Positions 19,203 to 56,179 of a DNA stretch of 64,000 nt are shown piece after piece. Position 1 is the stretch's first letter. Each line of letters opens with the position of its first letter. Location: assembly GCA_030648835.1 (NCBI GenBank), contig JAUSGT010000002.1:501458-565457 (forward strand), read 5' to 3'. The notes beneath the pieces are model-generated. The model saw only the letters and a list, made by a program, of their open reading frames with translations, searched no databases and had not been told where the DNA came from. This DNA comes from Candidatus Moraniibacteriota bacterium. Its GTDB lineage: Bacteria; Patescibacteriota; Minisyncoccia; Moranbacterales; UBA1568. The translations under genes were made by a program, and so were the position numbers.

Positions 19203-19207
19203 AAAAT

Positions 19208-20977: not shown

Positions 20978-21026
20978 CTACCCATTCCTATTTACCGGTA
21001 ATGAAATACAGGCAGTTGAACATCAT

Positions 21027-27105: not shown

Positions 27106-27139
27106 AAGTAAAAAATTCAAGGTATAAAAATTTGCTGCA

Positions 27140-28069: not shown

Positions 28070-28070
28070 T

Positions 28071-32438: not shown

Positions 32439-32472
32439 GATAATCAGAAGATGCTTGTATCCGTACTACAGT

Positions 32473-35102: not shown

Positions 35103-36044
35103 ATGTCTGAAAATCAACCTTATTTATCCGTTGTTGTCCCGCTCTACAATGAAGAGGGGAATGTCGCAGAGTTGTATCGGAAAATCAAAGAGGCGGTCCA
35201 GAAAATCGGACTGCCGTTTGAAATTATCTTTATCGATGACGGATCCCAGGATGGCACGCTGGATGCCGCGAAGGGATTGACGCCCTTGAAACTTATCGCT
35301 TTTCGTAAGAACTTCGGTCAAACGGCGGCGTTTGACGCCGGTATCAAGGCTGCCAAGGGTGAGATTATCATCACGTTGGATGGCGACCTGCAGAATGACC
35401 CAGCGGATATCCCGCTCCTCTTAGCCAAGATGGATGAAGGCTACGATGTTGTTTCCGGGTGGCGCGTGAAACGCCAGGATCCTTGGAGTAAGAAAATCCC
35501 TTCCCGCATTGCCAATCTGCTCCGCAAAATTTTGATTCACGACAATATTCATGACTCCGGATGTAGTCTTAAGGCCTATCGCCGAGAATGTTTCAAAAAT
35601 GTCGATTTGTTCGGTGAAATGCATCGTTTTATTCCTGCTATCCTCGAACTGGATGGTTTCAAGGTATCGGAAGTGGCAGTGTCGCATTATCCGCGTATTC
35701 ATGGAGTGACGAAATACAACTGGAAACGCGGAATCAAAGGATTTGTGGATATGCTTTCCATTTGGTTCTGGCGCAAGTATTCCTATCGGCCGCTCCATCT
35801 GTTTGGCGGCGGTGGAGTGTTCTTGTTCACTATCGGGAGCGGTATTCTCGTCTGGATGCTGGTGGAAAAAGTTTTCTTTGGGGCATCGCTTGCTGAGCGC
35901 CTTTGGCCGCTCATCGGCATCTTTTTCATCCTGATCGGTGTGCAACTCTTCGTCTCCGGTCTCCTGGCTGATATGGTAGTGCGTAATTATTATCAGTCAC
36001 ACAATCGGATGAATTACTCTATACGCGAGACGCGGGAACAGTGA
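35103..36044 (+). CDS. GT2 polyprenyl-phosphate glycosyltransferase (GtrB/ArnC/DPM1-like)
   Basis: 'LSVVVPLYNEEGNV', 'IIFIDDGSQDGT', 'RNFGQTAA', 'ITLDGDLQNDPADI', two C-terminal TM helices. Confidence 0.8.
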   Translation: MSENQPYLSVVVPLYNEEGNVAELYRKIKEAVQKIGLPFEIIFIDDGSQDGTLDAAKGLTPLKLIAFRKNFGQTAAFDAGIKAAKGEIIITLDGDLQNDPADIPLLLAKMDEGYDVVSGWRVKRQDPWSKKIPSRIANLLRKILIHDNIHDSGCSLKAYRRECFKNVDLFGEMHRFIPAILELDGFKVSEVAVSHYPRIHGVTKYNWKRGIKGFVDMLSIWFWRKYSYRPLHLFGGGGVFLFTIGSGILVWMLVEKVFFGASLAERLWPLIGIFFILIGVQLFVSGLLADMVVRNYYQSHNRMNYSIRETREQ

Positions 36045-37464: not shown

Positions 37465-37588
37465 GTCTAATTTTCAATTTCCATTTTCCAATTTTCAATA
37501 AATTTTCAAAAAAAGAATTTTCAAGTTATTTGAATATTGAGAATTGATTATTCAATGAAAATTGTGAATTGATAATTGATCATTGAAT

Positions 37589-38755
37589 ATGAAGGTATTA
37601 TTTCTCAATTATGAATATCCTCCACTTGGGGGTGGGGCGAGTGTGGCGACAGAAGCGATACTGAAAGAGTGGTCCGCTCTGCTTGATATGGAGGTGCATT
37701 TGGTGACTGCATCCGTAGGTGCTGTTTTGGAACAGAGCCGGCTTGGCAACAATGTTCACATCCATCGCGTACCGATCGGAAAAAATCCGCAAAAACTGCA
37801 TTCCCAGTCACTCAAGGATATCTTGGTTTATAGCGTGAAGACCTGGTTTTTTTTGCGGACGTTTCTTCGAGAGGAATGTAAAAAGCAGAAGTTTGACGTG
37901 ACTTTGGCATTTTTTACGGTGCCTTGTGGGTTCATCGCTTACCTGGTTAAACTTTTCTATCGTATCCCGTATGTGGTGTCGCTCCGCGGCGCGGACGTGC
38001 CGGGATTCAGCGAAAAGTATGATACGTTTTATCTTTTTGCCAAGCCGTTGGTGCGTTTTCTTTGGAAACATGCGGAAAAAGTGATCCCCAATAGTATCGG
38101 TATCCGTGACTTGGCACAAAAAACAAGCGCGCATCAGCCGATGGAAGTCATCGAGAACGGTGTCAATACGGAGACCTTTCACCCGAAAAACGAGGGAAAA
38201 TCTTTCTCTCCGGTAATTTTTCTTTCCACTTCGCGCCTGACACCGCGCAAGGGCATTCATTCCCTCATCGAAGCCTTCGCCTTAGTGATCAAATATGCCA
38301 AAGTACCGGTTGAACTTCATCTCATCGGAGAGGGGGAACAGAAAGAACCGCTTGAGGCGCGAGTGAAGGAACTCGGGATAGAAAATCAAGTCAAATTTTT
38401 CGGGCGCGTGGAACATCGGCTCCTCCCACAGTTCTATCAAAAGGCGCATGTGTTTGTCCTACCATCGAAGAACGAAGGGATGAGCAATTCCGCCTTGGAA
38501 GCTCTGGCAAGCGGGCTGCCGCTCGTGGTTTCCGGTACCGGAGGGATGCAGGAGTTGGTGACGGAGGGCAAGAACGGATTTTTCATCGATCCGGAGTTGA
38601 CAGCTCCTTTTGCGGAAACGCTTCTCAGCCTGGTGCAGAATCAGGGGAGTCTCATCGCCTTCGGCCGAGAAAGCCGCCAGCGGGCGGAACTGCGTGGCTG
38701 GGACAAAGTCGCTCTGCATTTCAAAAACGCTCTCGAGCAAAGTATCAGAAAGTAG
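37589..38755 (+). CDS. GT4 glycosyltransferase
   Basis: 'YPPLGGGASVATEAI' N-terminus, 'PSKNEGMSNSALEALASGLPLVVSGTGG'. Confidence 0.8.
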   Translation: MKVLFLNYEYPPLGGGASVATEAILKEWSALLDMEVHLVTASVGAVLEQSRLGNNVHIHRVPIGKNPQKLHSQSLKDILVYSVKTWFFLRTFLREECKKQKFDVTLAFFTVPCGFIAYLVKLFYRIPYVVSLRGADVPGFSEKYDTFYLFAKPLVRFLWKHAEKVIPNSIGIRDLAQKTSAHQPMEVIENGVNTETFHPKNEGKSFSPVIFLSTSRLTPRKGIHSLIEAFALVIKYAKVPVELHLIGEGEQKEPLEARVKELGIENQVKFFGRVEHRLLPQFYQKAHVFVLPSKNEGMSNSALEALASGLPLVVSGTGGMQELVTEGKNGFFIDPELTAPFAETLLSLVQNQGSLIAFGRESRQRAELRGWDKVALHFKNALEQSIRK

Positions 38756-38833: not shown

Positions 38834-39811
38834 TTACGCAACAACACTTGTTTGGCGGTATTTTTTCATGACACCTTTTCGGATGCGGCTGATGTCGGTG
38901 TGCATCATATAGGCCCAGTTCTGCATCCGTTGCCATTTGGTGCCCATCTTATTGACGAAGCGGGCGTAGGCCATCGGATCTTTCTCCGGGTCAGGTTTAT
39001 TCCAATCTCCGGTACCCGGAATGGGAGCGATGAATTCGAAGCCGTCTTCTCCTTCACCGAAAGCATCGAGCAGCTTGATGAGCGTGGGGACTTCTTCGAC
39101 CCCGTGTTCATCGTATTCATAATCCGCGGGTAAGATGTTGCCGGCTTTGTCACGCCGTTCATCGTCCCAGGCAGGGATGGTAGAGCGACGAGGATCATCG
39201 AGGCGCCGCTGCTCACACATCGTGTCGAAGCCACCGACCTGCATAAGAGAAATATTATGCCAGAGTGAGCACGTATTCATGATGTAGCCTTGCATCACGT
39301 ATGGCTTGATGGCGTCGAAGCCGAGGCCCGTGACGAGCGCGCCTTCGTCGAGCGCACCGAGCATACACGCGAAGGAATCGTGCGTAATGTTGGAGTCGGC
39401 CTCGCTTGAAAGGATGAGTGAATGACTGCAGCCTTTGACAAGCTGGACGGCGACTGCCCGATTCAGAATCTGACAGAAAATATCGCCGTGTTTCATTTCG
39501 TGAACCCAGACATTGGGTATATCACGTTCAATGATTTCGACGACCAGCGCCTCGGCGAGTTTCCCACAGTCATGGTCCTTGCGCGCTCTGTCAGACGCTA
39601 CCCAGATATCCACCCGTTTGATGGTATTCTTTTCCGGGTGGTGTCTCAAGGTTTGCAACATTTCGACGGTGCCAAGCAATTGCTTGACGCGCGCCGGGAC
39701 ACTTTCCTGTGTTCCGGCAAATCCGCGGAGGATGGCGCCAACAGTATTCTTTTCGAGGAAGTGTGCCGCGCCGCGTTCGTGGACTGCATTGCTGCGTATG
39801 TCTTGTATCAT
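38834..39811 (-). CDS. GC-rich hypothetical protein, GT-A-like fold candidate; paralog of the 60063 gene
   Basis: 'LSSEADSNITHDSFACMLGALDEGALVTGLGFD' aligns with 'CLDDNEHSFLSALDLLEKIEQGYLGAIGT' of the 60063 protein. AGGAGA Shine-Dalgarno. Own consensus promoter. Confidence 0.4.
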   Translation of the reverse strand: MIQDIRSNAVHERGAAHFLEKNTVGAILRGFAGTQESVPARVKQLLGTVEMLQTLRHHPEKNTIKRVDIWVASDRARKDHDCGKLAEALVVEIIERDIPNVWVHEMKHGDIFCQILNRAVAVQLVKGCSHSLILSSEADSNITHDSFACMLGALDEGALVTGLGFDAIKPYVMQGYIMNTCSLWHNISLMQVGGFDTMCEQRRLDDPRRSTIPAWDDERRDKAGNILPADYEYDEHGVEEVPTLIKLLDAFGEGEDGFEFIAPIPGTGDWNKPDPEKDPMAYARFVNKMGTKWQRMQNWAYMMHTDISRIRKGVMKKYRQTSVVA

Positions 39812-40025: not shown

Positions 40026-40162
40026 CATGCCCGGTAGTGAAATTTCGACTAAGTTTTATTGGCCTAGCTATATAAGGGCTAGTGTTTGGTTTTTAAATAT
40101 AAATGTTTATTGAGTTTTTTTGACATAATGCAAATGTCGAAATTCTACTACCGGGTATGCGT
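40026..40162. repeat. Inverted-repeat cassette, family B, copy 1 (25-bp IRs about 110 bp apart; right IR contains the ATG of the downstream gene)
   Basis: CATGCCCGGTAGTGAAATTTCGA ... TCGAAATTCTACTACCGGGTATGCG. A degenerate extra box lies at 39871-39905. Confidence 0.6.
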
Positions 40163-41089
40163 AAAAACCTCCTGACCGCGGGGAAAATCCTCATAACGTT
40201 GGCACTGGTATTCTGGCTGATTGAGCGCGTCGATTGGCGGGGGGTATTGGCGCAGCTCTCCTCCATCACCTGGCCGCTCTTGTTTCTCTATGTCGTTTTT
40301 CAGCTGCTCGGTAATCTTATTTCCGCCAAGAAATGGCAGACTATCGGACGTTTTAAAGGGCTCGACTTCAGTTTGCGAGAAGCGTTCTTCGCTTATTTGG
40401 CAGGGACATTCATCAACAACTTCTTGCCATCCACCATTGGTGGCGATGCCTACCGTACTATTTGGTTGGTGAAGCGCTCCGGCGCGCGCGCGGCCGCTCT
40501 TTCCACGGTTATTTTTGATCGTTTCATCGGACTGTGGACGATCGCTCTTTTGGCACTCTTGTTCAGTCCGGTGTTGTTTCCTTTTATGAAAGAAAGTCTC
40601 CCGCTTTCTCTCTCCTACATCACCCTCGTCGTTTTTTTCGTGGTAGATCTCGTCATCACGTACGCGTACTGTCAAGCATGGTTTCATACTCTCGTGGCGC
40701 GCCTACCGTTTCACAAACTGCGCCGCTTTTTGGAAGAGATTATTTTTTACACCAAAAAACACATCTGGCTCAAAACCAGTCTCTGGTCAGCTCTCTTCAT
40801 CTTTGTCGGCTTGGTACTTTCCAACTTTACCTTGTTCCACGCTCTGGGAAGTGATATTGGGATTCTTCCCTTTGCGAGCGTCATGTTCCTTGTGGCCATC
40901 GTCGCGTCTATCCCGATCTCGATCAATAATATCGGTATCAAGGAGTGGGCTTATATCACCTTCTTTGGCCTGGTCGGGGTGAGCGTAGAAACGGCCGTGA
41001 CGGTGGCGCTCCTCTCCCGCTTCATCCAGATGCTTCTCTCTTTCATCGCTTTGCCGCAATACTTGAGGAAAGAAGATACCAAACAATAG
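40157..41089 (+). CDS. UPF0104 flippase-like membrane protein (lysyl-PG synthase TM-domain family)
   Basis: 'FINNFLPSTIGGDAYRTIWLVKRSG' family signature. 8 TM helices. Confidence 0.6.
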   Translation: MRKNLLTAGKILITLALVFWLIERVDWRGVLAQLSSITWPLLFLYVVFQLLGNLISAKKWQTIGRFKGLDFSLREAFFAYLAGTFINNFLPSTIGGDAYRTIWLVKRSGARAAALSTVIFDRFIGLWTIALLALLFSPVLFPFMKESLPLSLSYITLVVFFVVDLVITYAYCQAWFHTLVARLPFHKLRRFLEEIIFYTKKHIWLKTSLWSALFIFVGLVLSNFTLFHALGSDIGILPFASVMFLVAIVASIPISINNIGIKEWAYITFFGLVGVSVETAVTVALLSRFIQMLLSFIALPQYLRKEDTKQ

Positions 41090-41114: not shown

Positions 41115-41209
41115 ATCCAGCACCTTCCAGAATACCCCGTGGTCTTGTCACGGGGGTAAATGGAAACATCAATCCATCCTGCGTGGTTCAATACCCTAAG
41201 GTGCTGGAT
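41115..41209. repeat. Palindromic repeat element, family A, copy 2
   Basis: ATCCAGCACCTTCCAGAATACCCCGTGGTCTTGTCACGGGGG...AAGGTGCTGGAT. The last 5 codons (NPAP*) of the convergent minus-strand gene are encoded inside it. Confidence 0.7.
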
Positions 41210-43034
41210 TTACTTTGACGACCTTGATAAAGTTTCCTTGACGGTTGCCGATAAAAAGTTGCCAAGCCGGATTGGGCGCGTTGTAATATCGGTACGCCGT
41301 GAGCCCCGATTTTTCTTCCCAGCGATCGTATTTCGGCATATAGCGGATCTGTCCGCGGCGCGTGAGGACGTAGTAATCCGGGTGGAGCGTTTCTTTATCG
41401 AATGAGTAGGCCGTGAGGCAACGCCCGACAAAAAATTCGCAGACGCCGTAGTAATCCGACCAGACGGTGAGCCGCTCTGCGTTTGGGAGACCATTCAGGT
41501 AGACCGCGGCTTCGTAGCCGCCATAGCCCCAGGCATCACTGATGAGGGCGTTTTGAGGGAGGAGGAAATTGGTGTAATTGAAGTAGAAAGGTTTGATGGT
41601 GATGAGACTGGCAAGCGAGCCCAAGAAAATGATGGAGGTTATGAAAAACGGCGTCCATCGTGGGGTGAACTTTTCACAGATAAACCAGAAACCAAGGGCT
41701 GCCAAAAAAGCGAAAAGAGGATAGAGGAAAACGCTGTAGCGCGGCGTCGAGAGGACATTGGAAAAAAGAAGGAGAAGTGTGTACGCGAGAGCGAAAAGGA
41801 GTAAACCGGAAGAGAAAAACGAATAGTTGTTTTTCTTTTTTACTATAAGCGTGGTGAGGAGAGCCGTCAGTCCCAAGAGTACGAGTGGCGTGAGTGAAAA
41901 GATTATCGGGTTCCATTCCAGAAGCAAGGCTTCCAAAAAGCGGGGAGTGTCCGTATAGTAGCGGGCGTTGGAAAGGTCTTTGATGTCGAAAGGGATGAGC
42001 GCGAAGATTCTCCACCCGGCAAAAAAGTTTCGGGCGATGATGAGGAAGAAAAAAATACCCAAAAACAGAAATGGTAGCGCGCGCGAGAGAGGAACAAGAA
42101 ATTTCCGGTAAAGGGTACGGACAAAGAAGAGGAACTTGTTTTTGAAAATGAAGGTGTCGAGGGCGAGCACGCCAAGGAGGAGTCCTCCACTTGAAAAGAA
42201 GATCAGTTTATGGGGAAGGGCAAGGAAGAAGGCATCTCGGGCGCTCGGACTGATGAGAAGAGCGGGAAGAAAAAGGCACAGAAGAATGAGCGCGCCAAAA
42301 ACAATTATGGTCCATTGGATGAGAGATTTCTTCAAAGCGCTCCGCAGAGTTTCATCGGTCGTCTCATCGGCACGCAAGAAGCGGAAAAGAATAAGCGCCA
42401 AGAAGAAAGGAAAGAGAATAAGTGCCGTGTATTTGGAAAGGAGTGCCAAGCCGGTACAGACGACAGTGAGCCACAGGAATTTCTTTTCTTCGGATTTTAA
42501 GAGGGCGAAAAAAGAAAATATCGCCACCATACCGAAGGACCAGAGGAGACTGTCGGGATTCACGATTTGCGAGATGCCCAGCAGAATCGGTGAAAGGGCC
42601 GAAAGGAGAGTAGTCCAGAGAGCGATCCAAGGATTCGTCAGTTTGACAATGAGAAAAAAGAGAAGGAAGAGAAGGCATCCGTTCAAAATGAGAAGAGGGA
42701 GACGAAAGTCTCTGTATATCGCCTCTACCCGATTCGTTTGGCAGGTGAGTATTTTGGCGTTGCTTTCGACGCATAGTGTCTTGGAATCGGGGTCGAGAAA
42801 GTAGCCTATGCCGGAAACCAAAGCCAGACTCACGCCGGGCTTGTCGTTGATAAAGGTTTTCTTCCATTTGCTGTTGGCTACGGCATCCCAGTATTGCGGG
42901 ACGCGTTCATAGACCCAGTAGTGCTCGTCCGCGGTGATGAACTTTCCCAGGTGTTGGAGGCCAAAGAAAAAATACGCGGAGAAAACAAGCGCCAATGAGA
43001 TATGGAAAAAATATCTGTTGAGAAAACCAAGCAT
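41196..43034 (-). CDS. GT-C polytopic glycosyltransferase, ArnT/PMT (GT39/83)-like
   Basis: 'FITADEHYWVYE' DE-motif in first extracytoplasmic loop, 'DKPG', about 13 TM helices, C-terminal soluble domain. Confidence 0.6.
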   Translation of the reverse strand: MLGFLNRYFFHISLALVFSAYFFFGLQHLGKFITADEHYWVYERVPQYWDAVANSKWKKTFINDKPGVSLALVSGIGYFLDPDSKTLCVESNAKILTCQTNRVEAIYRDFRLPLLILNGCLLFLLFFLIVKLTNPWIALWTTLLSALSPILLGISQIVNPDSLLWSFGMVAIFSFFALLKSEEKKFLWLTVVCTGLALLSKYTALILFPFFLALILFRFLRADETTDETLRSALKKSLIQWTIIVFGALILLCLFLPALLISPSARDAFFLALPHKLIFFSSGGLLLGVLALDTFIFKNKFLFFVRTLYRKFLVPLSRALPFLFLGIFFFLIIARNFFAGWRIFALIPFDIKDLSNARYYTDTPRFLEALLLEWNPIIFSLTPLVLLGLTALLTTLIVKKKNNYSFFSSGLLLFALAYTLLLLFSNVLSTPRYSVFLYPLFAFLAALGFWFICEKFTPRWTPFFITSIIFLGSLASLITIKPFYFNYTNFLLPQNALISDAWGYGGYEAAVYLNGLPNAERLTVWSDYYGVCEFFVGRCLTAYSFDKETLHPDYYVLTRRGQIRYMPKYDRWEEKSGLTAYRYYNAPNPAWQLFIGNRQGNFIKVVKVNPAP

Positions 43035-43163
43035 ACCCAGTAGTGAAACTTCGATAGTTTTTTAGGAAAACTATCTCTGTGTATCAAATGTTATTTTTTA
43101 TCAATGCTTCTTATGAAAGATTCCACCATAATACTTAATCGAAGTTCTACTACTGGGCATAGC
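43030..43163. repeat. Inverted-repeat cassette, family B, copy 2
   Basis: AGCATACCCAGTAGTGAAACTTCGA ... TCGAAGTTCTACTACTGGGCATAGC. Left IR overlaps the ATG (on minus) of the 41196..43034 gene. Right IR abuts the stop of the 43163..45433 gene. Confidence 0.6.
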
Positions 43164-45433
43164 TATTGTTCAAAACGGAACACTTTGACGAAGTGCGACG
43201 GACGATTATTGATGAGGATGTGGAAGAGCGGATTGGTTTTCGTGTAGTACTGATCAAAACGGATGATTCCGGGTTTATTATTGGCGATATCTCCGCCCAT
43301 CATCTTGGTTGTTCGACTCTGGCGGCCGGCAGAAACGACGATATAGTCGAGCCCGTTTTCCCGCATCATCGCATAGTTCCGACTGCTTGAGCATCGGCCG
43401 ACGAAGAATTTGCATACTCCATCTTTGTCCGTCCAAATGAGCATATTTTTGGCCTCAGGCAAGGAGTTCAGATACTGGGCGGCCTCATAGCTCCCCGCGC
43501 CCATATCTTTCACGTCAACGCTGTATTTGGCCGGCAGGAGCGCTGAGGCATAGCTCAGGGGAAAGGGTGTGAGAAAAAGCGTCAGCCCTCCCAAGAGGAT
43601 AACGAGAGAAGTCACGAAGACCGGTGTCGGCATTTCTTTGAGGGAGAATTTTTTGTGGATGGCAGTCAGACAATGTTCGAGAGTAATCCCGGCGATAATG
43701 GCGGCCAGGGGGAAGATGATAATCTGGTAACGGACAATCGCTCCCACGTGATTGACGGTTGTTCCGAGATAGTAGAGGAGAGTGAAGACGATGAGGTAGA
43801 AAGAAGTGCGCAAGGCGACCGATTCCGCAAAATGTTTTTTGAGAAAGAAAAAGGGCGCGATAATAAGAAAGAGGAAAACGAGCGGAGTGATACCGAAAAG
43901 GAGCGGGTAGAAATTCGTGAGGTAGGCGCCGATGAAATCGCTTTTGTCGGCAATCGTCTTGGGCGAGGCGAGGAGTTCCATAAAGTGATAGGGTGTCATA
44001 CCGAGCCACGTATCGAGAAGAGTGAAGGAAACAGCCGTAAAAAATATTCCACCGATGACCCAGGCGAGAGTGTGTTTTAGTTTTTGGAACAGGCTCAAAA
44101 TGACGCCGGTGAAACGGGATGCGTTCAGCCATTGATCGAGAAGAATGAGAAGCGTGACCACCAGAAAGAGAGGAGCCACTTTTTCAAAGGCTTGGCTTCC
44201 GAGGGTGGAGGTGAAGAGTTTCATTGGTTTGATCCACACGGCTGGAAAGAGAATGTAAAAAGTGGTGAGCGCCGCAAAGGTGAGGAGGGCAAGATGCTCA
44301 AGCGATTTTTTCAGGTAGCGAGTGAAAGGAATGAGCGCCTGTTTGGGATGGTAGAGATATTCGAGGAAAATGAGACCGAGGAAAAAAACAAAAAGAATAT
44401 TGGCGACATACTTGGTGAGGAGCGCCAAACCGAGAAAAATTCCGGAGAAGATGAGATAGCGAAACGAGCCACGTTTCTGAAATACAAGGTACGAGAGGAG
44501 CGAAAGCGGAGCAAAGACCCAAAGCAGCGAATCAGGGTTGATGATTTTGGTTATACCGATCAAGACCGGGGAAAGCGCGATAAAAGCGAAGCCGAACACA
44601 GCGTGTCTTCTCCCGAGCAGGCGTTCCAGAAAAAAGTAGAAAAGCGGCAGGAAGAGCGTGACAAAGAGAAGCTGTGGGAGACGGAAAGCGAAGTAATAGC
44701 TTTTTACATCGTTTTTGAGGTTGAGAACCTCACCTTGGTAGTGCGTGGTACGGTACTCTTTGGTCGATTTGAAAAATGTGCCGGGCCCGGTTACCAGAGC
44801 CACGGTAATACCCGGTTTATCGCTGATACCGGTGCCTTTCCAATCGCGCTCCCCGATATTTTTCCAGTATTTGGCGATGCGACCATCGATCCAGAGTGGT
44901 TCATCGACTGCGGCATACTCTGTGAGGCGGGAGAGTCCGAAAACAAAAAACATTCCTGTTACGATGAGGATGAGGAGAAGCGTCGGCAACCCTTGGGCGA
45001 TGAACCAATTCTTGCAGGTCAGCGCTTCACTGTCGATTCTGTTTTCAGCGGCGCGTTCTTTGCCAATGAACAGGGCGGAAACGAGTACACCGCTCGCGAT
45101 AACGTACATCCCAAGCGCTATCCAGAAAATATAGTGAAAATGACGAGAGGCGCTGAGGCCATAGGCCAAAATGAGTATGCCCGGAAGCCAGATGAGGAGC
45201 AGCCGGGAAAGCCACTTTTTCCAATCGAATTGCGAAGAAAAATAGGCAACCGCGCCTAAAGAAAGTACGCCGGCAATGGCGAAACCGAGATAAAATGGAT
45301 TGTTGCTCGAAGCGAGACGAAAGAGCGCGAGAGAATTTACTTGAAGAGAAACAAAGAGAAGTGTAAGCAATGCGTTGCAGACTGTCAAAATCCCGTAGAC
45401 ACGTTTTTCTTGGTTATCGAAAAAAGCCAACAT
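43163..45433 (-). CDS. GT-C polytopic glycosyltransferase, ArnT/PMT-like (tandem paralog)
   Basis: 'AAVDEPLWIDG' DE-motif, 'DKPGITVALVTG'. More than 14 TM helices. Confidence 0.6.
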   Translation of the reverse strand: MLAFFDNQEKRVYGILTVCNALLTLLFVSLQVNSLALFRLASSNNPFYLGFAIAGVLSLGAVAYFSSQFDWKKWLSRLLLIWLPGILILAYGLSASRHFHYIFWIALGMYVIASGVLVSALFIGKERAAENRIDSEALTCKNWFIAQGLPTLLLILIVTGMFFVFGLSRLTEYAAVDEPLWIDGRIAKYWKNIGERDWKGTGISDKPGITVALVTGPGTFFKSTKEYRTTHYQGEVLNLKNDVKSYYFAFRLPQLLFVTLFLPLFYFFLERLLGRRHAVFGFAFIALSPVLIGITKIINPDSLLWVFAPLSLLSYLVFQKRGSFRYLIFSGIFLGLALLTKYVANILFVFFLGLIFLEYLYHPKQALIPFTRYLKKSLEHLALLTFAALTTFYILFPAVWIKPMKLFTSTLGSQAFEKVAPLFLVVTLLILLDQWLNASRFTGVILSLFQKLKHTLAWVIGGIFFTAVSFTLLDTWLGMTPYHFMELLASPKTIADKSDFIGAYLTNFYPLLFGITPLVFLFLIIAPFFFLKKHFAESVALRTSFYLIVFTLLYYLGTTVNHVGAIVRYQIIIFPLAAIIAGITLEHCLTAIHKKFSLKEMPTPVFVTSLVILLGGLTLFLTPFPLSYASALLPAKYSVDVKDMGAGSYEAAQYLNSLPEAKNMLIWTDKDGVCKFFVGRCSSSRNYAMMRENGLDYIVVSAGRQSRTTKMMGGDIANNKPGIIRFDQYYTKTNPLFHILINNRPSHFVKVFRFEQ

Positions 45434-45526
45434 AGGAGGTTGCTTCAGAGCTTAAAATGGTTTAAAATGAAGGAAAGTTTACTTGTATCCTAGCCTAATT
45501 TAGGGAAAAAAGAAAGGCTGAAAAGT

Positions 45527-47314
45527 GTGTTTCAATTTTCTTCAAAGCAACTGGTAATTATCTCCTTGATAGCCATCATTTTATTTGGGGGTTTTTTGCG
45601 TACGTATCATTTTTCCGACTGGCTTCATTTTGAATTGGATCAGGCGCGGGATGCGCGCGTCGTCGATGACGCTCTTTCCCTGGGACCGGGTGAGTTGACG
45701 CTTTTGGGACCGAAGGCTGGCGGGACAGCGCTTCGTCTGGCGCCGGGATTTTATTATCTGGAGTATGTGAGCGCGCTCGTATTTGGTGGAACGCCCGCCG
45801 GTATGGCGGCGTTTGTGATGATCTTTTCCGTTCTTTCCCTTCCGCTTTTTTACTTTTTGCTCCGGAGGTTTTTCCCTTGGAAATTTTCTCTGGCGTTGAC
45901 ACTGCTTTTTGCCGTTTCGGAATACGCGGTGATGTACGGACGGTTCGCGTGGAATCCGAACCTTATCCCATTCTTCTCACTCTTGGGGTTCTACGCGCTT
46001 CTCCGATCGGTCGATCACGAAGAATCAAGGAAGAGTGGATGGTTCCTTGTCTCGGTTTTTTCCCTTACTTTGGCGACCCATTTTCACTTTCTCGCTTTTC
46101 TCGCCTTGCCGGCTATTTTTGTGCTTTTTCTTGTTTTTCGTCGGCCGCGTTTTCCTTGGAAAACATGGGTTTGGGCCGGAATAATTGCTCTCTGTCTCTA
46201 CGCGCCGCTTCTTTTGAATGAAATGGAAACCGGCGGCGCCAATACGCGTGAATTTTTCAAAGCGGTGACCGAAAAATCAAATAACGAAAAGCATTCTTTG
46301 ATTGAAAAGGCTCTTCGTGACGTATCGGGGCACGCGCTTTCCGGTATGGTTATCACGACCGGTTTTGAAGGGGGTACATTTCCGGCGGTGGTTGTCGCGA
46401 AGGAAGGTAAATGGATAGACTGGACCTGCGATAACCGCTGTGATAAGGGGAAATGGTATGGGATAGCGGCCACGCTCGTTTTCATAGCCAGTCTTTTTTC
46501 GCTTGGGTGGCTGTGGTTCAGGACAATGGAACGCAAACGACTCGATTTTCTGCTCCTCTGTGGGATATGGTTCGGTGTTACTTTTACTCTTTTCTTGCCG
46601 CTCGCGTATGATATCGTTCCGAGATTTTTTCTCCTTTCCCTTCCGCTTTTCTTTATTTTTATCGGGTTTGTTTTATTCTCCATAAGAAAGCTTTTCGGTG
46701 CCAGTCGAATCGTACGCCAGGCGGTATGGATACTGCTTGCTCTTCTTGTCGTTTCCAATCTTTTTTTCCTGACGCAGCGTTTTGACGAATTGTCGCAAGC
46801 CGGGAGCGCGGCCATCGATAGCCCGCCGGATCGTATTTTGAAGGAACGCATTCGTGTGACACTGGAGCAACAGAATGCGATTGTAGATTTTCTCGGGGAG
46901 CGTTTCCAAAAAACGGGCTACCCGGTGTTTATGTGGAGCGAACCTCAGCACCGTCGCGCGCTCAAGTACCTCTTGGAAAAACGTGGAATAGAGAATGCCG
47001 TCTTGGGTTTTGATGGGGTATATCGGCAAGGCGTTTACTATCTTATTTTACGGGCCCAATCCGATCTTGAGGACGCGCTCAAGAAATATCGCGCAAGCTA
47101 CACAGTCGGGAAGACGACCTCATTCGGGACGCTGGTTGTGATCGAACTCATGCCAAAACCGGAAGCTATCATGGGTGAACGCAGGGATTTTTCGGCGGCG
47201 AAACCTGTGGAAATCAAATCTTCACCGCGCTATACCTGGCGGGAATATTTCAGTCGCAATTTTTCTCAACCTGAGAACATAAAAGAGGATATCGAAGACG
47301 CAGAAGATAATTAA
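45527..47314 (+). CDS. GT-C-like polytopic membrane protein (ArnT/DUF2029-like)
   Basis: GTG start. 'FELDQARDARVVDD' acidic loop after TM1. About 11 TM helices plus C-terminal soluble domain. Confidence 0.45.
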   Translation: MFQFSSKQLVIISLIAIILFGGFLRTYHFSDWLHFELDQARDARVVDDALSLGPGELTLLGPKAGGTALRLAPGFYYLEYVSALVFGGTPAGMAAFVMIFSVLSLPLFYFLLRRFFPWKFSLALTLLFAVSEYAVMYGRFAWNPNLIPFFSLLGFYALLRSVDHEESRKSGWFLVSVFSLTLATHFHFLAFLALPAIFVLFLVFRRPRFPWKTWVWAGIIALCLYAPLLLNEMETGGANTREFFKAVTEKSNNEKHSLIEKALRDVSGHALSGMVITTGFEGGTFPAVVVAKEGKWIDWTCDNRCDKGKWYGIAATLVFIASLFSLGWLWFRTMERKRLDFLLLCGIWFGVTFTLFLPLAYDIVPRFFLLSLPLFFIFIGFVLFSIRKLFGASRIVRQAVWILLALLVVSNLFFLTQRFDELSQAGSAAIDSPPDRILKERIRVTLEQQNAIVDFLGERFQKTGYPVFMWSEPQHRRALKYLLEKRGIENAVLGFDGVYRQGVYYLILRAQSDLEDALKKYRASYTVGKTTSFGTLVVIELMPKPEAIMGERRDFSAAKPVEIKSSPRYTWREYFSRNFSQPENIKEDIEDAEDN

Positions 47315-47326
47315 AAATCCATACTT

Positions 47327-48847
47327 ATGCATTGGAAACAAACTGTGACTGTACTCGCGATCATTGTCGTTGTAGGAACGGCACTCCGTTTTTCCGGACT
47401 GGGCGGCAACTCTTTTGTAGCGGATGAATTTTTGGATATGAATTCGGCGTATGGATATTCGCAAACGGGGCAGTGGAAGGCTTGGGATTTCAACTTCGGC
47501 ACATTGTCCGAAATCAACATTAACGCTCCACGTGATGAACGGGCGGTCGTCTATAAATGGCAGGTAGCACAGATCTTCCATTTTTTGCCACCGACTGAAG
47601 CTGTCGCGCGTTCTGTCAGCGTTCTCTGGGGAATCGTTTCCTTTCTCGTGGTTTTTTGGGCGGCGTACACGATGACGAAACGTCGGGAAATCGGACTGAT
47701 CGCGGCTTTTCTGTTTGCCGTTTCGGTGAGTGGTATTGTACTTGATCGGACGCTCCGGATGTACGCGATGTTCTTCCCGCTCTACCTTGCGACAGCTACG
47801 TTCGCGTTTCTCGCTTTGGAGAGAATGTATGTCGGAAAAATGCGCTTTTGTCGGTACGTGTGGGAAAAATGCGGCATCCATATACATTTCGCGTTGGCGG
47901 CCGGAGCATTCTTTCTTCTTTCGCTTTTGACACACCAGCTGACGGGAACGTTTGTTTTCGTCCTGGCCGCGTACCTTCTGGCGGGGGCACTCTTAGCATA
48001 CCGACAGGGGCAAACCCTCAAGAACAAGTATTTTATTTTACTGTGCGTTCTCTTCGTCAGCGTGGCAGGTATAGCGATTTTTTTCCCGAAATTTTTCCGC
48101 TCTTTCGCTTCCGGGCTGGTTTTCTTCGACAATCATTACGGTTATGTGGGTTACGTTCTCCGTGATTACTACCATCCTCTTTTGGCGACTCTGCTTATTC
48201 TTTTCGGTGGGTGGTGGATTGCCAAGCGTGAGCATATGCCGAAAGAATCGCTCTGGCTCACTCTCTCGCTTCTCATACCGCTTATGATGGCGATATGGAT
48301 GTGGCGGCGCAATGTCGGAGCGCAGTATATATTTTTTGTCCAGTCGTTTGCCCTGATACTGGTTTCCGGGGGTATTTTTGGCTTCTGGAGGCTTATTCAG
48401 GAGAAATGGAGCCTCAAGGCAAGAGCAATGTCTTTACTTGTTCTCGGTGTCATATTGCTCTTGGTACCGAACTGGGGCTATTTTGGTGAGGAAAATAACA
48501 CATATCACGAGACCTCGTCCGGAGACAACCCGAATTATCGAAAGGTCTTCACCTATTTCAAGAAAAATCATCAAGTGACAGATGTCCTGGTAACGCGTAA
48601 CGTTCGCAATTACTACTTTAGCGGCGCGAAAGTGCCTGTCTACGACCTCGGGGATGAGATTTCACAGACGCATCTGACGCAGACAGATTTAGAAAGGTTG
48701 ATGACGGAATATCAAACCGGTTGGGTGATCCTTTCGGACAATGACTATGACTATGTCGGCAAAGGAGTGAAAGAATTTCTGAACAAGAATCTGATTCGTG
48801 TCAGCAATGATCAGGTGCGCGGTATGATCGATGTGTACCGCTGGTAA
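47327..48847 (+). CDS. GT-C polytopic glycosyltransferase, ArnT/PMT-like
   Basis: 'GGNSFVADEFLDMNSAYGYSQTGQW' DE-motif loop. About 11 TM helices. Confidence 0.6.
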   Translation: MHWKQTVTVLAIIVVVGTALRFSGLGGNSFVADEFLDMNSAYGYSQTGQWKAWDFNFGTLSEININAPRDERAVVYKWQVAQIFHFLPPTEAVARSVSVLWGIVSFLVVFWAAYTMTKRREIGLIAAFLFAVSVSGIVLDRTLRMYAMFFPLYLATATFAFLALERMYVGKMRFCRYVWEKCGIHIHFALAAGAFFLLSLLTHQLTGTFVFVLAAYLLAGALLAYRQGQTLKNKYFILLCVLFVSVAGIAIFFPKFFRSFASGLVFFDNHYGYVGYVLRDYYHPLLATLLILFGGWWIAKREHMPKESLWLTLSLLIPLMMAIWMWRRNVGAQYIFFVQSFALILVSGGIFGFWRLIQEKWSLKARAMSLLVLGVILLLVPNWGYFGEENNTYHETSSGDNPNYRKVFTYFKKNHQVTDVLVTRNVRNYYFSGAKVPVYDLGDEISQTHLTQTDLERLMTEYQTGWVILSDNDYDYVGKGVKEFLNKNLIRVSNDQVRGMIDVYRW

Positions 48848-49014: not shown

Positions 49015-50481
49015 TTATGATTTTTTGAAAAGTTTGAGAAAAGGGGCGATGTCTTCGTCTGCCAATTCGCCAAAAAACCTGAGTATTCCGAAGTAAGCGA
49101 TAAAGAGTACGGCGCCGGAAATGATGAAGCTGTACGCGCCATGCGGGAGAAAGCGTGAGAAAAAGAGTATGAGGAGGATGCTTGTCAGCGAGAACAGAAG
49201 AGTTTTTATCGGTATGTGGACATTGAAATGGCGTTTGGTGTAGACAAGGATACCGATTGTCAGAGCGAGACAAATGAGTGTGGTGGAAAGGGCGGCACCA
49301 ACGAGCTGCCACTTGGGTATGAGGAGAAAATTGAGTACGATCATGCCGAGGAATCCGAAGAACGCCAGTTTCATGGGGATTTTGACCAGTCCGGCGCCAT
49401 TCAGAGCAAAGCTTAATACGTAAAAAATTGTGAGAAATCCGACACCAACGGCATAGATACTCATCGGAGCGGCAGCGGCTTCGTATCTTTCTCCATAAAA
49501 GAGAGAGAGCACTTGGGGGGCATACAGAGCGAGCAGTGTCACCAGCGGGAACAACAGCAGTGTCAACAGGCGCAAAGAGCGATTGACGAGGTTCTCGGTT
49601 TCTCTCATGTTGTTTTCGGCGGTTGTTTTGGCGATCGCCGGCAGGAGAATGATGGCCAGCGCGTAAAACAAATAGTAAGGAATACGGCCAACGGTAATGG
49701 CGGCGTTGTAGATGCCGGTCTGGTAGTCGCTCTGGAGCAAACTTTTCACGAAGTACAGATCAAAGGTAAGAATACATTCATAAAAAAGGAGGAAAACGGT
49801 AAGTGGCCAAGCGTAGCGAAGGAGTGTCCGGTAGGGAAACGTGGAAGTGGTCTTGGCAGTATGCGCCGCGGGAAAGTATTTTTTCATCAGCATCTCTTCA
49901 AGCAAGAAACCAACCAGAAAAACGACGAGAGGGGACAGAATGTTTCCTGATATGGCGCCTTTGACGCCGAAGATGTAGGCGAGAGCAATAATAAAAAGCA
50001 CTCTCCCGAGAGAGCGGATAATTTTCAGTATGGCTTGAAGGCGGAAAAAATGCAGACCAACAAAGAAGTAGAGATTGAAAGAGGCCGCCGCGAAAGTGGG
50101 GATGACGAGAGCCGAGAGTTGAAACAAAGGAGTGAGACTCGGATCATGAAGAAGCCAGGCGATCGCTGGAGCCGAGAAAAAGAATACGAGCGTGACTACT
50201 CCCATGATGATGGCCTGGAGCTTCATGGCGGAGAGCCGGATGCCGAAGATTTGTTCGGGACTTTTTTCGAAGGCGGCACTCAAGTACTTCGACATGGTAG
50301 TGGGGATACCGTTGCCGATAAGCACGATGACCATCGTCGTGAGAGTGATGACGAGGCCGTAGCGTCCGTAGGCTTCCGGTCCCAAGATGCGGCCGGTAGC
50401 CGAATGGACGATGTAACCGGAGAGATTATAGATGATCTCAGCCACCGTGAGCCAGGCGAGAGATGATGAGAAGTTTTTCAT
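49015..50481 (-). CDS. Wzx/MurJ-like polysaccharide flippase (MOP superfamily)
   Basis: 14 TM helices. 'LTVAEIIYNLSGYIVHSATGRILGPEAYGRYGLV' N-terminal pattern. Confidence 0.7.
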   Translation of the reverse strand: MKNFSSSLAWLTVAEIIYNLSGYIVHSATGRILGPEAYGRYGLVITLTTMVIVLIGNGIPTTMSKYLSAAFEKSPEQIFGIRLSAMKLQAIIMGVVTLVFFFSAPAIAWLLHDPSLTPLFQLSALVIPTFAAASFNLYFFVGLHFFRLQAILKIIRSLGRVLFIIALAYIFGVKGAISGNILSPLVVFLVGFLLEEMLMKKYFPAAHTAKTTSTFPYRTLLRYAWPLTVFLLFYECILTFDLYFVKSLLQSDYQTGIYNAAITVGRIPYYLFYALAIILLPAIAKTTAENNMRETENLVNRSLRLLTLLLFPLVTLLALYAPQVLSLFYGERYEAAAAPMSIYAVGVGFLTIFYVLSFALNGAGLVKIPMKLAFFGFLGMIVLNFLLIPKWQLVGAALSTTLICLALTIGILVYTKRHFNVHIPIKTLLFSLTSILLILFFSRFLPHGAYSFIISGAVLFIAYFGILRFFGELADEDIAPFLKLFKKS

Positions 50482-51095
50482 ATTTTACTCAAAATTTCTT
50501 CAGAAATAATTTCCTTTTCTCTATTTGCATCGATAACAATCATTTTCCACTGGGGAATCTTCTGTTGGAAAAGTGCCTGTTTCACTCGGAGATATTCAAT
50601 ACCCTGTTCCGGCGTCCGTTCGCGAGACATGATAGTTTCGGGGGAGATGTCAAAATAGAACGCAATGTCTGCTTTCGGCATCCATTTTACCAAAATTTTC
50701 GTACCAAAATTAAGTATTGACTTCAAAGAGGAAACTTTTTGTGTTAGATATTCGATATTGATGATCGAGTCATAGAAAAAACGATCAGAAAGGAGGTAGT
50801 CGTAGTTCTCCTTGCGGAGTTTCTTGCGCAGAAACCAGAAGCGCACCATGTCGATAAACAAAAATTTGAGGCGCGTATGGAGAGTGAACCATGAAGCGTT
50901 GATTGAAGCCTTTTCTTTACCCGGTTGAAAGCTTTTTTGACCTTTGAAAAATCGGGCGACCCGGTTAGCCAAAGAGAATTCGACGGCATGAAAATAGGCT
51001 ATCTTTCTGCCTTCCCGTTCCAATTTTTCTCGCAAAAGGTTCAACTGGGTCGATTTGCCTGAGCCATCAACACCGGAAAAAGTAATAAATTTCAT
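50478..51095 (-). CDS. tmk: Thymidylate kinase-like P-loop kinase
   Basis: 'ITFSGVDGSGKST' P-loop, 'LSDRFFYDSI' DRY/F motif, 'FYFDISPE'. Confidence 0.55.
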   Translation of the reverse strand: MKFITFSGVDGSGKSTQLNLLREKLEREGRKIAYFHAVEFSLANRVARFFKGQKSFQPGKEKASINASWFTLHTRLKFLFIDMVRFWFLRKKLRKENYDYLLSDRFFYDSIINIEYLTQKVSSLKSILNFGTKILVKWMPKADIAFYFDISPETIMSRERTPEQGIEYLRVKQALFQQKIPQWKMIVIDANREKEIISEEILSKI

Positions 51096-51101
51096 GGTGT
51101 T

Positions 51102-52607
51102 TTAATACATAATAACTGAAATTGGCTGCATTTTTACCACGACCTTTCCGACATTATTCGCGGTGACATTTTCAATCACTTCTTCCCCGCGTTTGTAGTG
51201 AGAAGCATCCTGTTCGATGACATGCGATGAGCGGCCATTGTAGAGTTTTACGCCTTTTGTTTTGAGTTTTTCGTGGAGTTCTTCTTTGTTTTGTGGGATG
51301 ACGGTATCTGTTTTTTCCGTTGCGCGGCCCGCGCCGTGATTGCTGGAATAAAAACTGGATTGGTTGTCATCTTGGCCGACACAAAGGTAGGCTTCACTAC
51401 TCATAGAAATCGGGATAAAGGCCGGCTCACCGGTACTTCCGAAGAGGGGGTGATTCTCCATACGTGACTTTCCATACGCGCGGGATGTCCCGTTGCGATG
51501 GACCCAGATTTTTTTGCCGTAGTGTTCTTCCTGTGAAACGAGGATGTGCGGCATATCATAGAGGAGATCCATTTCCGGATCGCGGCCAAGGACTTTCTTG
51601 ATAGTTTCGGAGATGTTGTGAGTAATGGTAGCCCGGTTGGCGTGGGCAAAGTTGGAGCAGGCGTTGCGGGCGGCCATATAGAGCTGGCCATCTTCGGCGC
51701 TTCCGTCAAAAGTAATCAGTGGCTCTTTTTTTCCAAAATCCGATTGGCGAATTTTTTTCGCGATTTGGGCGACGGTTTTTTTGAAGGGCGTTCTCCAAAA
51801 AAAGCGGCCGATATTCATAAGGATAGCGGTTGATAAGTGTTCCCTCTTCTTGGCGGTATACATGTACATCGTGTACTGGCCAAGAATGCCGGAGCCGCAA
51901 TGTACCATAAAGACGTATTGACCCCGTTCTAAACCGAATTTTTTGGCTGTTTCTTCATCGACGACTTCGGTGATTTTCATCAGATCGAGGAAATGATTGC
52001 CGGCTGCCCCGAGTACACCAGCCCGAATTTGGGCGAAAAAAAGAAACAATTTTGGGATGACATTGAAAATATCTTTGGCTGTCACCTCTCGACTGAAGAA
52101 ATTGCCTCTCTCAATGCAGTTCAAGGTTTCATTCTTCGTTTTTATTCCCAAATATTTGATAAGCGGGGCAATACCCAGGCGGCAGATATCCACGACGACC
52201 GAGAAGGGGAGGTAGGTGCCGATGAATTTTTTGGTTGGTACGGTCTTTGTCAACTCTCGGAAGAGTTTGCCCAACTCATCTTCGGTAATATTGGTATCGT
52301 TCAGATTGGTACGGACAAGACGCATACCGCAGGCCGGATCAGAATCATTCACCTGAGGGAGGATATATTTTTCTGAAGTCACCGTCGTACCGGTGGCATT
52401 TTTGCGACCGGGCTTGGAATGCACATCGGCCATCGCGGCGATGTGATGGAAGACACAATCGTTTGAAGCGACGCTTTCCAATTGTGTGAGTGTAGCGGTT
52501 TCCGGCATCAGTTTCTCTTCCATATGAAAAACGACCGGGACTTTCATCTTGTCGGTCTTCATTTCGCTTTTATATGGAGAGAGTTTGGTAATATTGTCTT
52601 TGTACAT
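51102..52607 (-). CDS. rtcB: RtcB-family RNA ligase
   Basis: 'DPACGMR', 'SSNHGAGR' signature motifs. Confidence 0.8.
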   Translation of the reverse strand: MYKDNITKLSPYKSEMKTDKMKVPVVFHMEEKLMPETATLTQLESVASNDCVFHHIAAMADVHSKPGRKNATGTTVTSEKYILPQVNDSDPACGMRLVRTNLNDTNITEDELGKLFRELTKTVPTKKFIGTYLPFSVVVDICRLGIAPLIKYLGIKTKNETLNCIERGNFFSREVTAKDIFNVIPKLFLFFAQIRAGVLGAAGNHFLDLMKITEVVDEETAKKFGLERGQYVFMVHCGSGILGQYTMYMYTAKKREHLSTAILMNIGRFFWRTPFKKTVAQIAKKIRQSDFGKKEPLITFDGSAEDGQLYMAARNACSNFAHANRATITHNISETIKKVLGRDPEMDLLYDMPHILVSQEEHYGKKIWVHRNGTSRAYGKSRMENHPLFGSTGEPAFIPISMSSEAYLCVGQDDNQSSFYSSNHGAGRATEKTDTVIPQNKEELHEKLKTKGVKLYNGRSSHVIEQDASHYKRGEEVIENVTANNVGKVVVKMQPISVIMY

Positions 52608-56176: not shown

Positions 56177-56179
56177 AGC

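Follow-up and report, generated by a model that had tools for sequence, protein, structure and literature searches.

The stretch of DNA analysed here, 64,000 nucleotides of contig JAUSGT010000002.1 from a Candidatus Moraniibacteriota genome (assembly GCA_030648835.1, positions 501,458 to 565,457) and called the window below, holds at its positions 41196 to 48847 four adjacent long genes for membrane proteins of the GT-C class of glycosyltransferases, which we term G1 to G4. G1 (41196-43034, minus strand; 612 aa) is a GT-C glycosyltransferase with the NCBI label 'phospholipid carrier-dependent glycosyltransferase', and G2 (43163-45433, minus strand; 756 aa) is a GT-C glycosyltransferase with an N-terminal extension of five hydrophobic helices. 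G3 (45527-47314, plus strand; 595 aa) is a GT-C glycosyltransferase of a separate family and ends in a soluble domain of ~180 aa, and G4 (47327-48847, plus strand; 506 aa), labelled 'hypothetical protein Q7S04_03755' by NCBI, is a GT-C-fold protein. Each of the four has 8-14 hydropathy peaks, so all are polytopic, and the helix pattern of an AlphaFold2 model of G1 is compatible with 13 transmembrane (TM) helices. A preliminary description, made by a model from the sequence letters and a list of open reading frames (ORFs), had called these genes a tandem array of four. Four adjacent long ORFs are indeed there, but their order on the strands is minus, minus, plus, plus: they are two pairs, transcribed outward from a 94-bp spacer, and thus not a head-to-tail array.

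An acidic DE/DD motif in the first extracytoplasmic loop of each protein had also been proposed, and the family alignments bear this out, with the acidic residues invariant or at least 95% conserved and placed after the first core helix. The motif reads F-x-T-A-D36-E37-H-Y-W in G1, where D36-E37 is invariant in the family alignment, and V-D177-E178-x-L-W in G2, where D177-E178, downstream of the five-helix extension, is invariant among 23 orthologs. G3 has W-x-H-F-E36-L-D38-Q-x-R-D42 after TM1, with E36, D38 and D42 invariant in 19 orthologs, and G4 has V-x-D33-E34-F-L-D37, with both D33-E34 and D37 invariant across its family. In the models of G1 and G4 the motif forms the start of the first helix after TM1, a place that appears to be the one where GT-C enzymes carry their catalytic acids.

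G1 and G2 align with 31% identity over 615 aa (E 2e-73) and both carry a C-terminal domain in which a D-A-W-G-Y-G-G-Y-E motif and two cysteines are invariant; judged by their sequences they are old paralogs. The domain that bears this motif is extracytoplasmic in G1. Neither BLAST nor hhalign comparison of family profiles (5-8% probability) relates G3 or G4 to G1 and G2 or to each other. Because sequence links only G1 with G2 and nothing detectable ties in G3 or G4, these are four families that share a fold and not recent duplicates.

The assignment to the GT-C class comes from family profiles for three of the proteins and from predicted structure for the fourth. G1 matches the Pfam families PMT (PF02366) with 36.1 bits and PMT_2 with 34.6 bits, and G2 matches them with 37.9 and 46.9 bits, all above the gathering cut-offs of 22.7 bits for PMT and 26.1 bits for PMT_2; G3 matches PMT_2 with 32.3 bits and has no PMT match. 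These alignments are confined to the TM3-TM6 region, and the PMT matches of G1 and G2 are partial, covering profile positions ~81-232 of 245. G4 has no Pfam match and no NCBIfam match above cut-off, and a Pfam domain is found in none of the 120 matches listed among its 394 homologs. None of the ten large membrane proteins of the window has an NCBIfam match that reaches its cut-off, the sole hints being weak ones to Agl23 and archaeo_STT3; the trace of archaeo_STT3 on G4 (E 0.08) is the only STT3 hint from that database among G1-G4.

Structure comparison was made with AlphaFold2 models of G1 and G4, G2 being assigned through its homology to G1 and G3 through PMT_2. The model of G1 has a predicted local distance difference test score (pLDDT) of 90.2 and a predicted TM-score (pTM) of 0.92, and that of G4, built on a 35-sequence alignment, a mean pLDDT of 81.3 and a pTM of 0.80. 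In Foldseek searches of the PDB the top 32 matches of the G1 model are all GT-C enzymes with probability >0.95, in the order STT3/AglB (~3e-6), then DPY19, ALG9/12, Pmt4, ArnT, PglB and AftA. The top 21 matches of G4 are likewise all GT-C enzymes, with probability 0.97-1.00 and nothing beyond them reaching 0.2; they include AglB (3.7e-6), ArnT (8.4e-6; TM-score 0.50, target-normalised), STT3, PglB, DPY19, AftA, AftD and Pmt4. On the evidence of its model G4 therefore has the GT-C fold; neither Pfam nor NCBIfam detects it, and it could be recognised from predicted structure only.

How close the four proteins come to characterised enzymes is a separate matter. The Foldseek TM-scores of G1 and G4 to ArnT, PMT and STT3 are ~0.3-0.55 (0.30-0.53 to ArnT), so that the fold is not in doubt while none of the solved enzymes is a close relation. 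Sequence searches of the PDB with G1 and G2 singly gave no meaningful relative, and profile searches with the G1, G3 and G4 families gave no sequence relative. There is no Pfam match to PMT_4TMC or MIR in any of G1-G4, and no match at E <= 0.1 to the NCBIfam equivalog model of ArnT. The surroundings do not reproduce an arn operon either, since an ArnC-like GT2 and a UDP-glucose dehydrogenase are present without ArnA, ArnB, ArnD, ArnE or ArnF. The term 'ArnT/PMT-like' used in the preliminary description thus holds at the level of the superfamily and goes too far at the level of the named enzymes.

The G1 comparison also bears on the possibility that G1 and G2 act like the oligosaccharyltransferases STT3, AglB and PglB, transferring to proteins, en bloc, an oligosaccharide built on polyprenyl diphosphate and flipped by a Wzx-type protein. 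STT3 and AglB give G1 its best Foldseek E-values, a Wzx-like flippase and GT4 genes lie nearby, and the invariant D-A-W-G-Y-G-G-Y-E stands ~20 residues after the last TM helix, a position that we take to recall the WWDYG motif of these enzymes. However, Pfam finds PMT and PMT_2 and no STT3 domain in G1-G4, G1 has no WWDYG motif, the TM-scores of G1 to oligosaccharyltransferases are only ~0.4-0.47, and the tightest conserved partner of the genes is a synthase of the GtrB/ArnC type, which makes lipid-linked monosaccharides. We consider en bloc transfer improbable.

Comparison with other genomes shows that G1-G4 belong to a larger unit. In a scan that took one genome per species and compared the ORFs of each locus (labelled L001 and so on) with the proteins of the window, relatives of G1 occur at 74 loci, all of them in Moranbacteria or other Patescibacteria. 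The unit, Module I, consists of a GT2 gene (35103), Ugd (36154), a GT4 gene (37583), a UPF0104 gene (40157), G1-G4, a MOP-superfamily flippase gene (49015), a thymidylate-kinase-like gene and RtcB. G4, G3, G2 and G1 are adjacent and colinear, in the same relative orientations, in 13 other species, which makes their arrangement more than chance; G4-G3-G2 are adjacent in 18 species, and at nine loci the GT2, Ugd, GT4 and UPF0104 genes are also present within 10 kb. Across species G1-G4 are each 37-79% identical, and the GT2 (35103), at 67-83%, is the best-conserved gene of the module. By these sequence comparisons the four GT-C proteins appear as distinct, non-redundant, individually conserved enzymes of a conserved and portable module.

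The same data decide whether the four could have arisen by recent tandem duplication, or be redundant or decaying copies without distinct roles. The genes are adjacent and two of them are paralogs, as such an origin would have it, but G1 and G2 have diverged to 31% identity, G3 and G4 have no detectable sequence relation, and in 13 species all four are matched by separate orthologs that keep the gene order and have their catalytic residues intact. We give this explanation hardly any credence, and recent tandem duplication, ruled out by the synteny and conservation data, is rejected. What had been read as an array of tandem duplicates is instead a set of four long-diverged, individually conserved orthologous groups.

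Some homologs of G1 (P0010, P0044 and P0113, ~912-941 aa; the L019 ortholog has 912 aa) carry at the C terminus an additional ~300-aa domain whose motifs (D-x-H, GDN, GDHD, SDHP and GEAH) are of the metallophosphoesterase type. Pfam Metallophos scores 19.1 bits on this domain, below its cut-off of 21.5, and the domain has no counterpart in the window.

The other genes of Module I include what a lipid-linked sugar donor would need. The GT2 gene (35103-36044, plus strand; Pfam Glycos_transf_2, E 1.8e-34) encodes a candidate polyprenyl-phosphate sugar synthase of the ArnC/GtrB/PgfS type, which aligns over its full length with ArnC (1.5e-51) and PgfS (3e-41). Two further GT2s lie in the window. 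One, of the GtrB/PgfS type (4087-5049, plus strand; Glycos_transf_2, E 8.3e-30), aligns over its full length with PgfS (4.7e-69) and ArnC (1.6e-48) in NCBIfam, and the other (57310-58260, minus strand) aligns best with AglJ (1.2e-36) and, over most of its length, with PpgS (1.3e-24). All three have two C-terminal TM helices, so the three GtrB/ArnC-like GT2s of the preliminary description stand, and by sequence they are synthases of this type, all scoring below the equivalog cut-offs. The further proposal of that description, that the three could supply three distinct lipid-linked monosaccharides, goes further than these matches.

Next to the module GT2 lies the gene for a UDP-glucose 6-dehydrogenase (36154-37464, plus strand), a Ugd/TuaD-like source of UDP-glucuronic acid with all three UDPG_MGDP_dh Pfam domains, 445.9 bits to the NCBIfam nucleotide-sugar dehydrogenase model (cut-off 189.8) and TuaD as its nearest equivalog (540 bits). 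It is followed by a cytoplasmic GT4 glycosyltransferase (37583-38755, plus strand; Glycos_transf_1, E 2.3e-38), and both genes are syntenic in related loci. The UPF0104 protein (40157-41089, plus strand), with seven TM helices, resembles the membrane part of MprF (LPG_synthase_TM, E 8.1e-37; TIGR00374 in NCBIfam, 73.4 bits against a cut-off of 43.2) and is syntenic beside G1/G2, which agrees with its earlier reading as flippase-like. After G4, and syntenic there, lies the MOP-superfamily flippase of the Wzx/Polysacc_synt kind (49015-50481, minus strand; Polysacc_synt 93.1 bits, with matches to MurJ and MatE). A homolog of the GtrA family or of ArnE/F was not found, and the flippase candidates are these two proteins. 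A 120-aa membrane protein with 3-4 TM helices (34660-35022, plus strand), without a Pfam family, precedes the module GT2 and follows a large membrane protein gene at 32455, and its orthologs keep the same position in L025, L027 and L078. A GtrA-like or DUF2304/GacJ-like identity, considered for this protein and for the N-terminal extension of G2, was set aside for want of Pfam support.

From the conserved GtrB/ArnC-type neighbour we infer a lipid-phosphate-linked sugar as the donor of G1-G4. The GT2 at 35103 would charge polyprenyl phosphate, on the cytoplasmic side of the membrane, with the sugar of a UDP-sugar; UDP-glucuronic acid or a derivative is a candidate source because the Ugd gene neighbours the GT2 gene. 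The UPF0104 protein, the MOP flippase or both would then move the lipid-linked sugar to the outer face, where G1-G4 would transfer it to extracytoplasmic acceptors by means of the Asp and Glu residues of the first outside loop. A set of GT-C enzymes encoded with polyprenyl-phosphate-type GT2s and flippase-like proteins fits the suggestion of the preliminary description that glycosylation takes place outside the cytoplasm and draws on lipid-linked sugars.

Such a gene set is also what one might find if the four GT-C enzymes worked in series on a wall polysaccharide or lipoglycan, extending or decorating it outside the membrane from one polyprenyl-phosphate sugar, in the manner of the Emb, Aft and Mpt enzymes of Corynebacteriales, ALG3/9/12 of the endoplasmic reticulum (ER) or the side-chain transferases GacL and YfhO. 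The primer would then come from the GT4 enzymes and be flipped by the MOP or UPF0104 proteins. A single conserved GT2 beside four distinct conserved GT-C proteins suits this well, as do the GT4s, Wzx-like flippase, Ugd and Wzy_C protein of the module and its surroundings, the character of the whole window as a polysaccharide-type island with nucleoside diphosphate (NDP)-sugar pathways, and the presence of ALG9 and ALG12 among the Foldseek matches of G1 and of AftA and AftD among those of G4. On the other side, no initiating phosphoglycosyltransferase of the WecA/MraY or WbaP/Bac_transf type was detected among the window ORFs of at least 150 aa, and assembly of a polymer leaves unexplained why the ortholog of G1 is found again and again beside arrays of VirB2-like pilin genes. 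We regard this as a possible but not a probable account of all four enzymes; it may well be right for G2-G4 while G1 acts on proteins.

The pilin arrays are seen where orthologs of G1 occur outside Module I. There the G1 gene is divergent from an array, immediately upstream of it, of 2-7 genes for VirB2-like proteins of the Pfam family T4SS_pilin (PF18895), named after the type IV secretion system (T4SS). An iterated search found a complete adjacent pilin gene in 12 Moranbacteria species (L004, L005, L006, L008, L009, L010, L011, L031, L039, L045, L047 and L053) and three partial cases, so that 12 is a lower bound. The gap between G1 and the pilin gene is ~25-150 bp at ten of the 12 loci; the exceptions are L011, whose called ORFs overlap, and L047, where a G1-like gene intervenes. 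Nine of ten array proteins tested score above the PF18895 cut-off (34-75 bits against 26.6) and the remaining one scores 26.5; for the array in L076 (7332-9862, minus strand; L039/L076) the T4SS_pilin assignment is also among the precomputed Pfam annotations. Ser, Thr, Gly, Pro and Cys abound in the exposed N-terminal parts of these pilin-like proteins, where Ser and Thr together make up 18.9% against a background of 11.8% and a C-x-P-x-x-T-G-L-S-S segment recurs. Two of the proteins (L005:6217-6993 and L031:1292-2035, both minus strand) have a Cys-rich N-terminal segment that matches Defensin_beta_2 with 26.3 and 25.2 bits (cut-off 22.2); such a module is unexpected in a pilin from a bacterium, and the match may reflect a chance pattern of cysteines.

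The G1 genes of the two settings are not separate lineages. In a tree of 116 G1/G2-like proteins the pilin-adjacent and module-resident G1 genes are interleaved, and the G2 orthologs form one clade that is always module-resident. Across the two contexts G1 proteins are 50-63% identical, which equals their similarity within a context, and Fitch parsimony on trees of 32 orthologs gives seven context changes, with at least four in all 100 bootstrap replicates. At L078, Modules I and II (the latter described below) are colinear with the window, G1 is missing and the UPF0104 gene abuts G2. Taken together, the interleaving, the equal identity, the parsimony counts and L078 indicate that one orthologous gene has moved repeatedly between the donor-supply module and the pilin array. 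The locus tags of L078 (A2808) and of L004 with its pilin-adjacent G1 (A2878) differ, which gives no ground for placing both in one genome.

Because G1 has moved in this way, O-glycosylation of VirB2-like pilins is the most likely role of G1 at least, and perhaps of its paralog G2. The earlier guess of pilin O-glycosylation thereby gains comparative support, from the repeated place of G1 orthologs beside VirB2-like arrays, while the acceptors themselves are what we infer from that place. The fuller account towards which we lean, if only slightly, is that four non-redundant GT-C enzymes use a lipid-linked sugar supplied by the module to glycosylate extracytoplasmic acceptors. In it G1, perhaps with G2, would modify secreted VirB2-like pilin-like proteins, and G3 and G4 would act on other acceptors.

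Several observations weigh against this account. The link to pilins is one of gene adjacency and not of biochemistry, and the 64-kb window has no T4SS_pilin-like gene, so for this genome G1 is tied to pilins by orthology only. The trees are simple neighbour-joining distance trees. By analogy with the mycobacterial Emb/Aft/Mpt and ER ALG series, one GT2 for four GT-C enzymes would be more typical of stepwise polymer assembly than of protein O-glycosylation, and the GT4s, the Wzx-like flippase and the Wzy_C protein would also fit a polysaccharide pathway. Finally, we know of no precedent for a polyprenyl-phosphate-glucuronate donor.

The system is a variant of glycosylation systems that are already known in kind, those which pair a polyprenyl-phosphate sugar with GT-C enzymes. 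Like the three-component systems (GtrA/GtrB/GtrC, ArnC/ArnEF/ArnT, GacI/J/K/L, CsbB/GtcA/YfhO and the GT136 pentofuranose system), it has an ArnC/PgfS-like GT2 with C-terminal TM helices, candidate flippases and GT-C proteins with acidic residues in an outside loop. Unlike them, it has four distinct conserved GT-C proteins per GT2 instead of one, a UPF0104 (MprF-TM-like) protein in a conserved position where no GtrA or ArnE/F homolog was found, and a host from the Candidate Phyla Radiation (CPR). A flippase of the Wzx type has a precedent in GacK of the GacI/J/K/L system, and a MATE flippase in the GT136 system. With the GT39/PMT enzymes, including the actinobacterial Pmt that works with Ppm1, the proteins share the PMT/PMT_2 matches of G1-G3, the D-E motif that opens the first outside loop in G1, G2 and G4, and the lipid-phosphate sugar donor implied for the module; they differ in having no PMT_4TMC or MIR domain and no PDB sequence match, in their own C-terminal domains and in TM-scores to Pmt of ~0.3-0.55. 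The EmbA-C, AftA-D, MptA-C and PimE enzymes of Corynebacteriales and ALG3/9/12/6/8/10 of the ER resemble them in that one lipid-phosphate donor serves several GT-C enzymes at defined outside steps, but these have no sequence-level relation to G1-G4, and a donor pathway for arabinose or mannose was not identified here.

Two other bacterial systems bear on the proposed action on proteins. TfpW of Pseudomonas aeruginosa group IV strains, a GT-C enzyme with a tetratricopeptide repeat (TPR) domain whose gene adjoins pilA, arabinosylates the type IV pilin. The G1 orthologs of at least 12 species likewise stand beside pilin genes, and another protein of the window (10891) has a TM-plus-TPR architecture; however, the neighbours of G1 are VirB2/TrbC-like T4SS_pilin genes and not type IV pilins, G1 has no TPR, and the G1 of the window is not beside pilin genes. 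In streptococci, genes for a GT2, two GT-C enzymes and their adhesin acceptors stand together in the Pgf cluster, and in Pgf and GtrB/PgtC2 a GT2 with one or two GT-C proteins glycosylates Ser/Thr-rich extracytoplasmic regions, the acceptor genes sometimes sharing the cluster. The full-length alignment of the GT2 at 4087 with PgfS is a further point of likeness; PgfM1, PgfM2 and PgtC2 belong to the YfhO family, unlike G1-G4, and Ugd, UPF0104 and four GT-C proteins are features of the present system.

VirB2-like pilin arrays are known in the CPR, and for one cultivated Saccharibacterium they are reported to be indispensable to its epibiotic lifestyle. The word 'glycosyl' does not occur in the paper that surveys such arrays in the CPR, and a paper on the type IV pili of Saccharibacteria calls glycosylation in that group "unexplored". 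A literature search on GT39, mannosyltransferases or glycosyltransferases in the CPR or Moranbacteria found nothing relevant.

The earlier count of GT-C proteins in the window is higher than the evidence carries. At least nine had been counted; of these four are firm, two are borderline, two belong to an uncharacterised family and one is a Wzy_C protein. The first borderline case (10891-12633, minus strand) has 11 TM helices and C-terminal TPR repeats; its TPR matches in Pfam are strong and those to GT-C families sub-threshold, with 22.7 bits for Glucos_trans_II (GtrII; cut-off 30) and 16.7 bits for PMT_2 (cut-off 26.1). Its sequence makes it a probable GT-C protein of the TfpW/TMTC architecture, and hhalign found no relation between it and the G3 profile. 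The second is a polytopic protein (54209-56176, minus strand) with a borderline score for DUF6541 (28.6 bits, cut-off 29). The uncharacterised family is represented by two genes, B (28053-30803, plus strand; 916 aa) and C (32455-34647, plus strand). C is a polytopic GT-C candidate with ten N-terminal TM helices, a large outside domain and a C-terminal TM helix, and B is its distant homolog (hhalign against the C family: 97.9% probability, E 4.2e-13, 591 columns). B lies in a stretch of 35% G+C, against ~46% elsewhere in the window, and C adjoins the GT2 gene in L025, L027 and L078.

A profile search of 1.8 billion proteins found 2283 representative clusters of the B/C family (50% identity), with members of ~700-1700 aa. 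An Asp after TM1 (Asp46 in C) is invariant among 95 close homologs and nearly so among distant members, and CBM_4_9 carbohydrate-binding domains occur in some members. A link to a known family came neither from scanning 30 diverse members with Pfam nor from NCBIfam, a PDB profile search or hhalign against G1. The Wzy_C protein (62245-63825, plus strand; E 2.2e-16, 60.4 bits against a cut-off of 31.7) is of the O-antigen ligase, polymerase or PglL type and, since it clears the cut-off of a different family, is left out of the count of ArnT/PMT-type GT-C proteins. Its gene follows a GT4 gene (61054-62241, plus strand; Glycos_transf_1, E 4.4e-24), and the pair recurs in L043, L054, L057 and L073.

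A second conserved unit, Module II (54209-58260, minus strand), consists of the DUF6541-like protein, a GT4 (56180-57313) and the AglJ/PpgS-like GT2, and also takes in a UDP-HexNAc dehydrogenase (58614), the GT4 at 61054 and the Wzy_C protein. It recurs beside G1-like arrays in L054, L057, L063, L069 and L073, and also in L078, and in more distant Parcubacteria it adjoins tandem sets of 2-4 G1-like paralogs. Two genes of Module I, the thymidylate-kinase-like gene (39.5 bits, weak) and the RtcB RNA ligase gene (50478-52607, minus strand), are syntenic with the rest across species, for example in L002, L023, L055 and L078, for no obvious functional reason. The slot between GT4 and Ugd is variable: it holds a gene of the bAvd/23S_rRNA_IVP type in L001 (17804-18178, minus strand), an Exo_endo_phos gene in L078 and an unrelated 325-aa protein in the window (38834-39811). 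Genes of the bAvd/23S_rRNA_IVP type encode accessory proteins of diversity-generating retroelements.

The window is otherwise given over almost wholly to glycan biosynthesis, including NDP-sugar pathways. It holds at least five GT4s, at least six GT2s, two or three MOP flippases and one Wzy_C protein; tRNA genes and Rfam elements were not found in it. A pathway of the CDP-3,6-dideoxyhexose type (15165-21953, plus strand) includes glucose-1-phosphate cytidylyltransferase (408 bits against 300), CDP-glucose 4,6-dehydratase (465 against 278) and RfbH (683 against 423), all above their NCBIfam equivalog cut-offs, followed by an acetolactate-synthase-like thiamine pyrophosphate enzyme (486 bits, below the cut-off of 538) and a short-chain dehydrogenase/reductase. 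We take this arrangement to recall the YerE/YerF route to the branched sugar yersiniose. A B12-binding radical S-adenosylmethionine (SAM) enzyme, a sugar C-methyltransferase (Methyltransf_14/13) and two more SAM methyltransferases, at 9179-10870, 21950-22648 and 25858-28069, suggest methylated sugars in the glycan of this strain. At 84-1574 (plus strand) lies a gene for a Thr/Ser-rich protein with segments that look like Ig-like repeats, no TM helix and no Pfam match; much longer homologs (1093-1316 aa) are encoded within Module I or next to it in L026 and L040, and the protein may lie at the cell surface and be a candidate acceptor.

That a 64-kb glycan island takes up ~10% of a 635-kb contig suggests that surface glycans are a priority for this organism. 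The CPR, or Patescibacteria, account for a large part of bacterial diversity and lead a life attached to host cells, and their surface chemistry is almost unknown. To this picture our analysis adds a conserved and portable module of four GT-C genes, a GT-C protein recognised from predicted structure only, and a testable hypothesis on acceptors, the VirB2-like pilins. In its strongest form, which we put forward tentatively and would not yet call likely, GT-C enzymes of the G1 family O-glycosylate the VirB2-like pilins of a T4SS-like apparatus of the CPR, and the module is a dedicated lipid-linked-sugar machine that coats the surface through which these ultra-small cells make contact. If true, this would be the first defined protein glycosylation pathway in the CPR and the first glycosylated pilin of the VirB2 type. 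It would link glycan machinery to the apparatus of host contact, and would make the GT2 and G1 genes targets in the few CPR systems that are genetically tractable.

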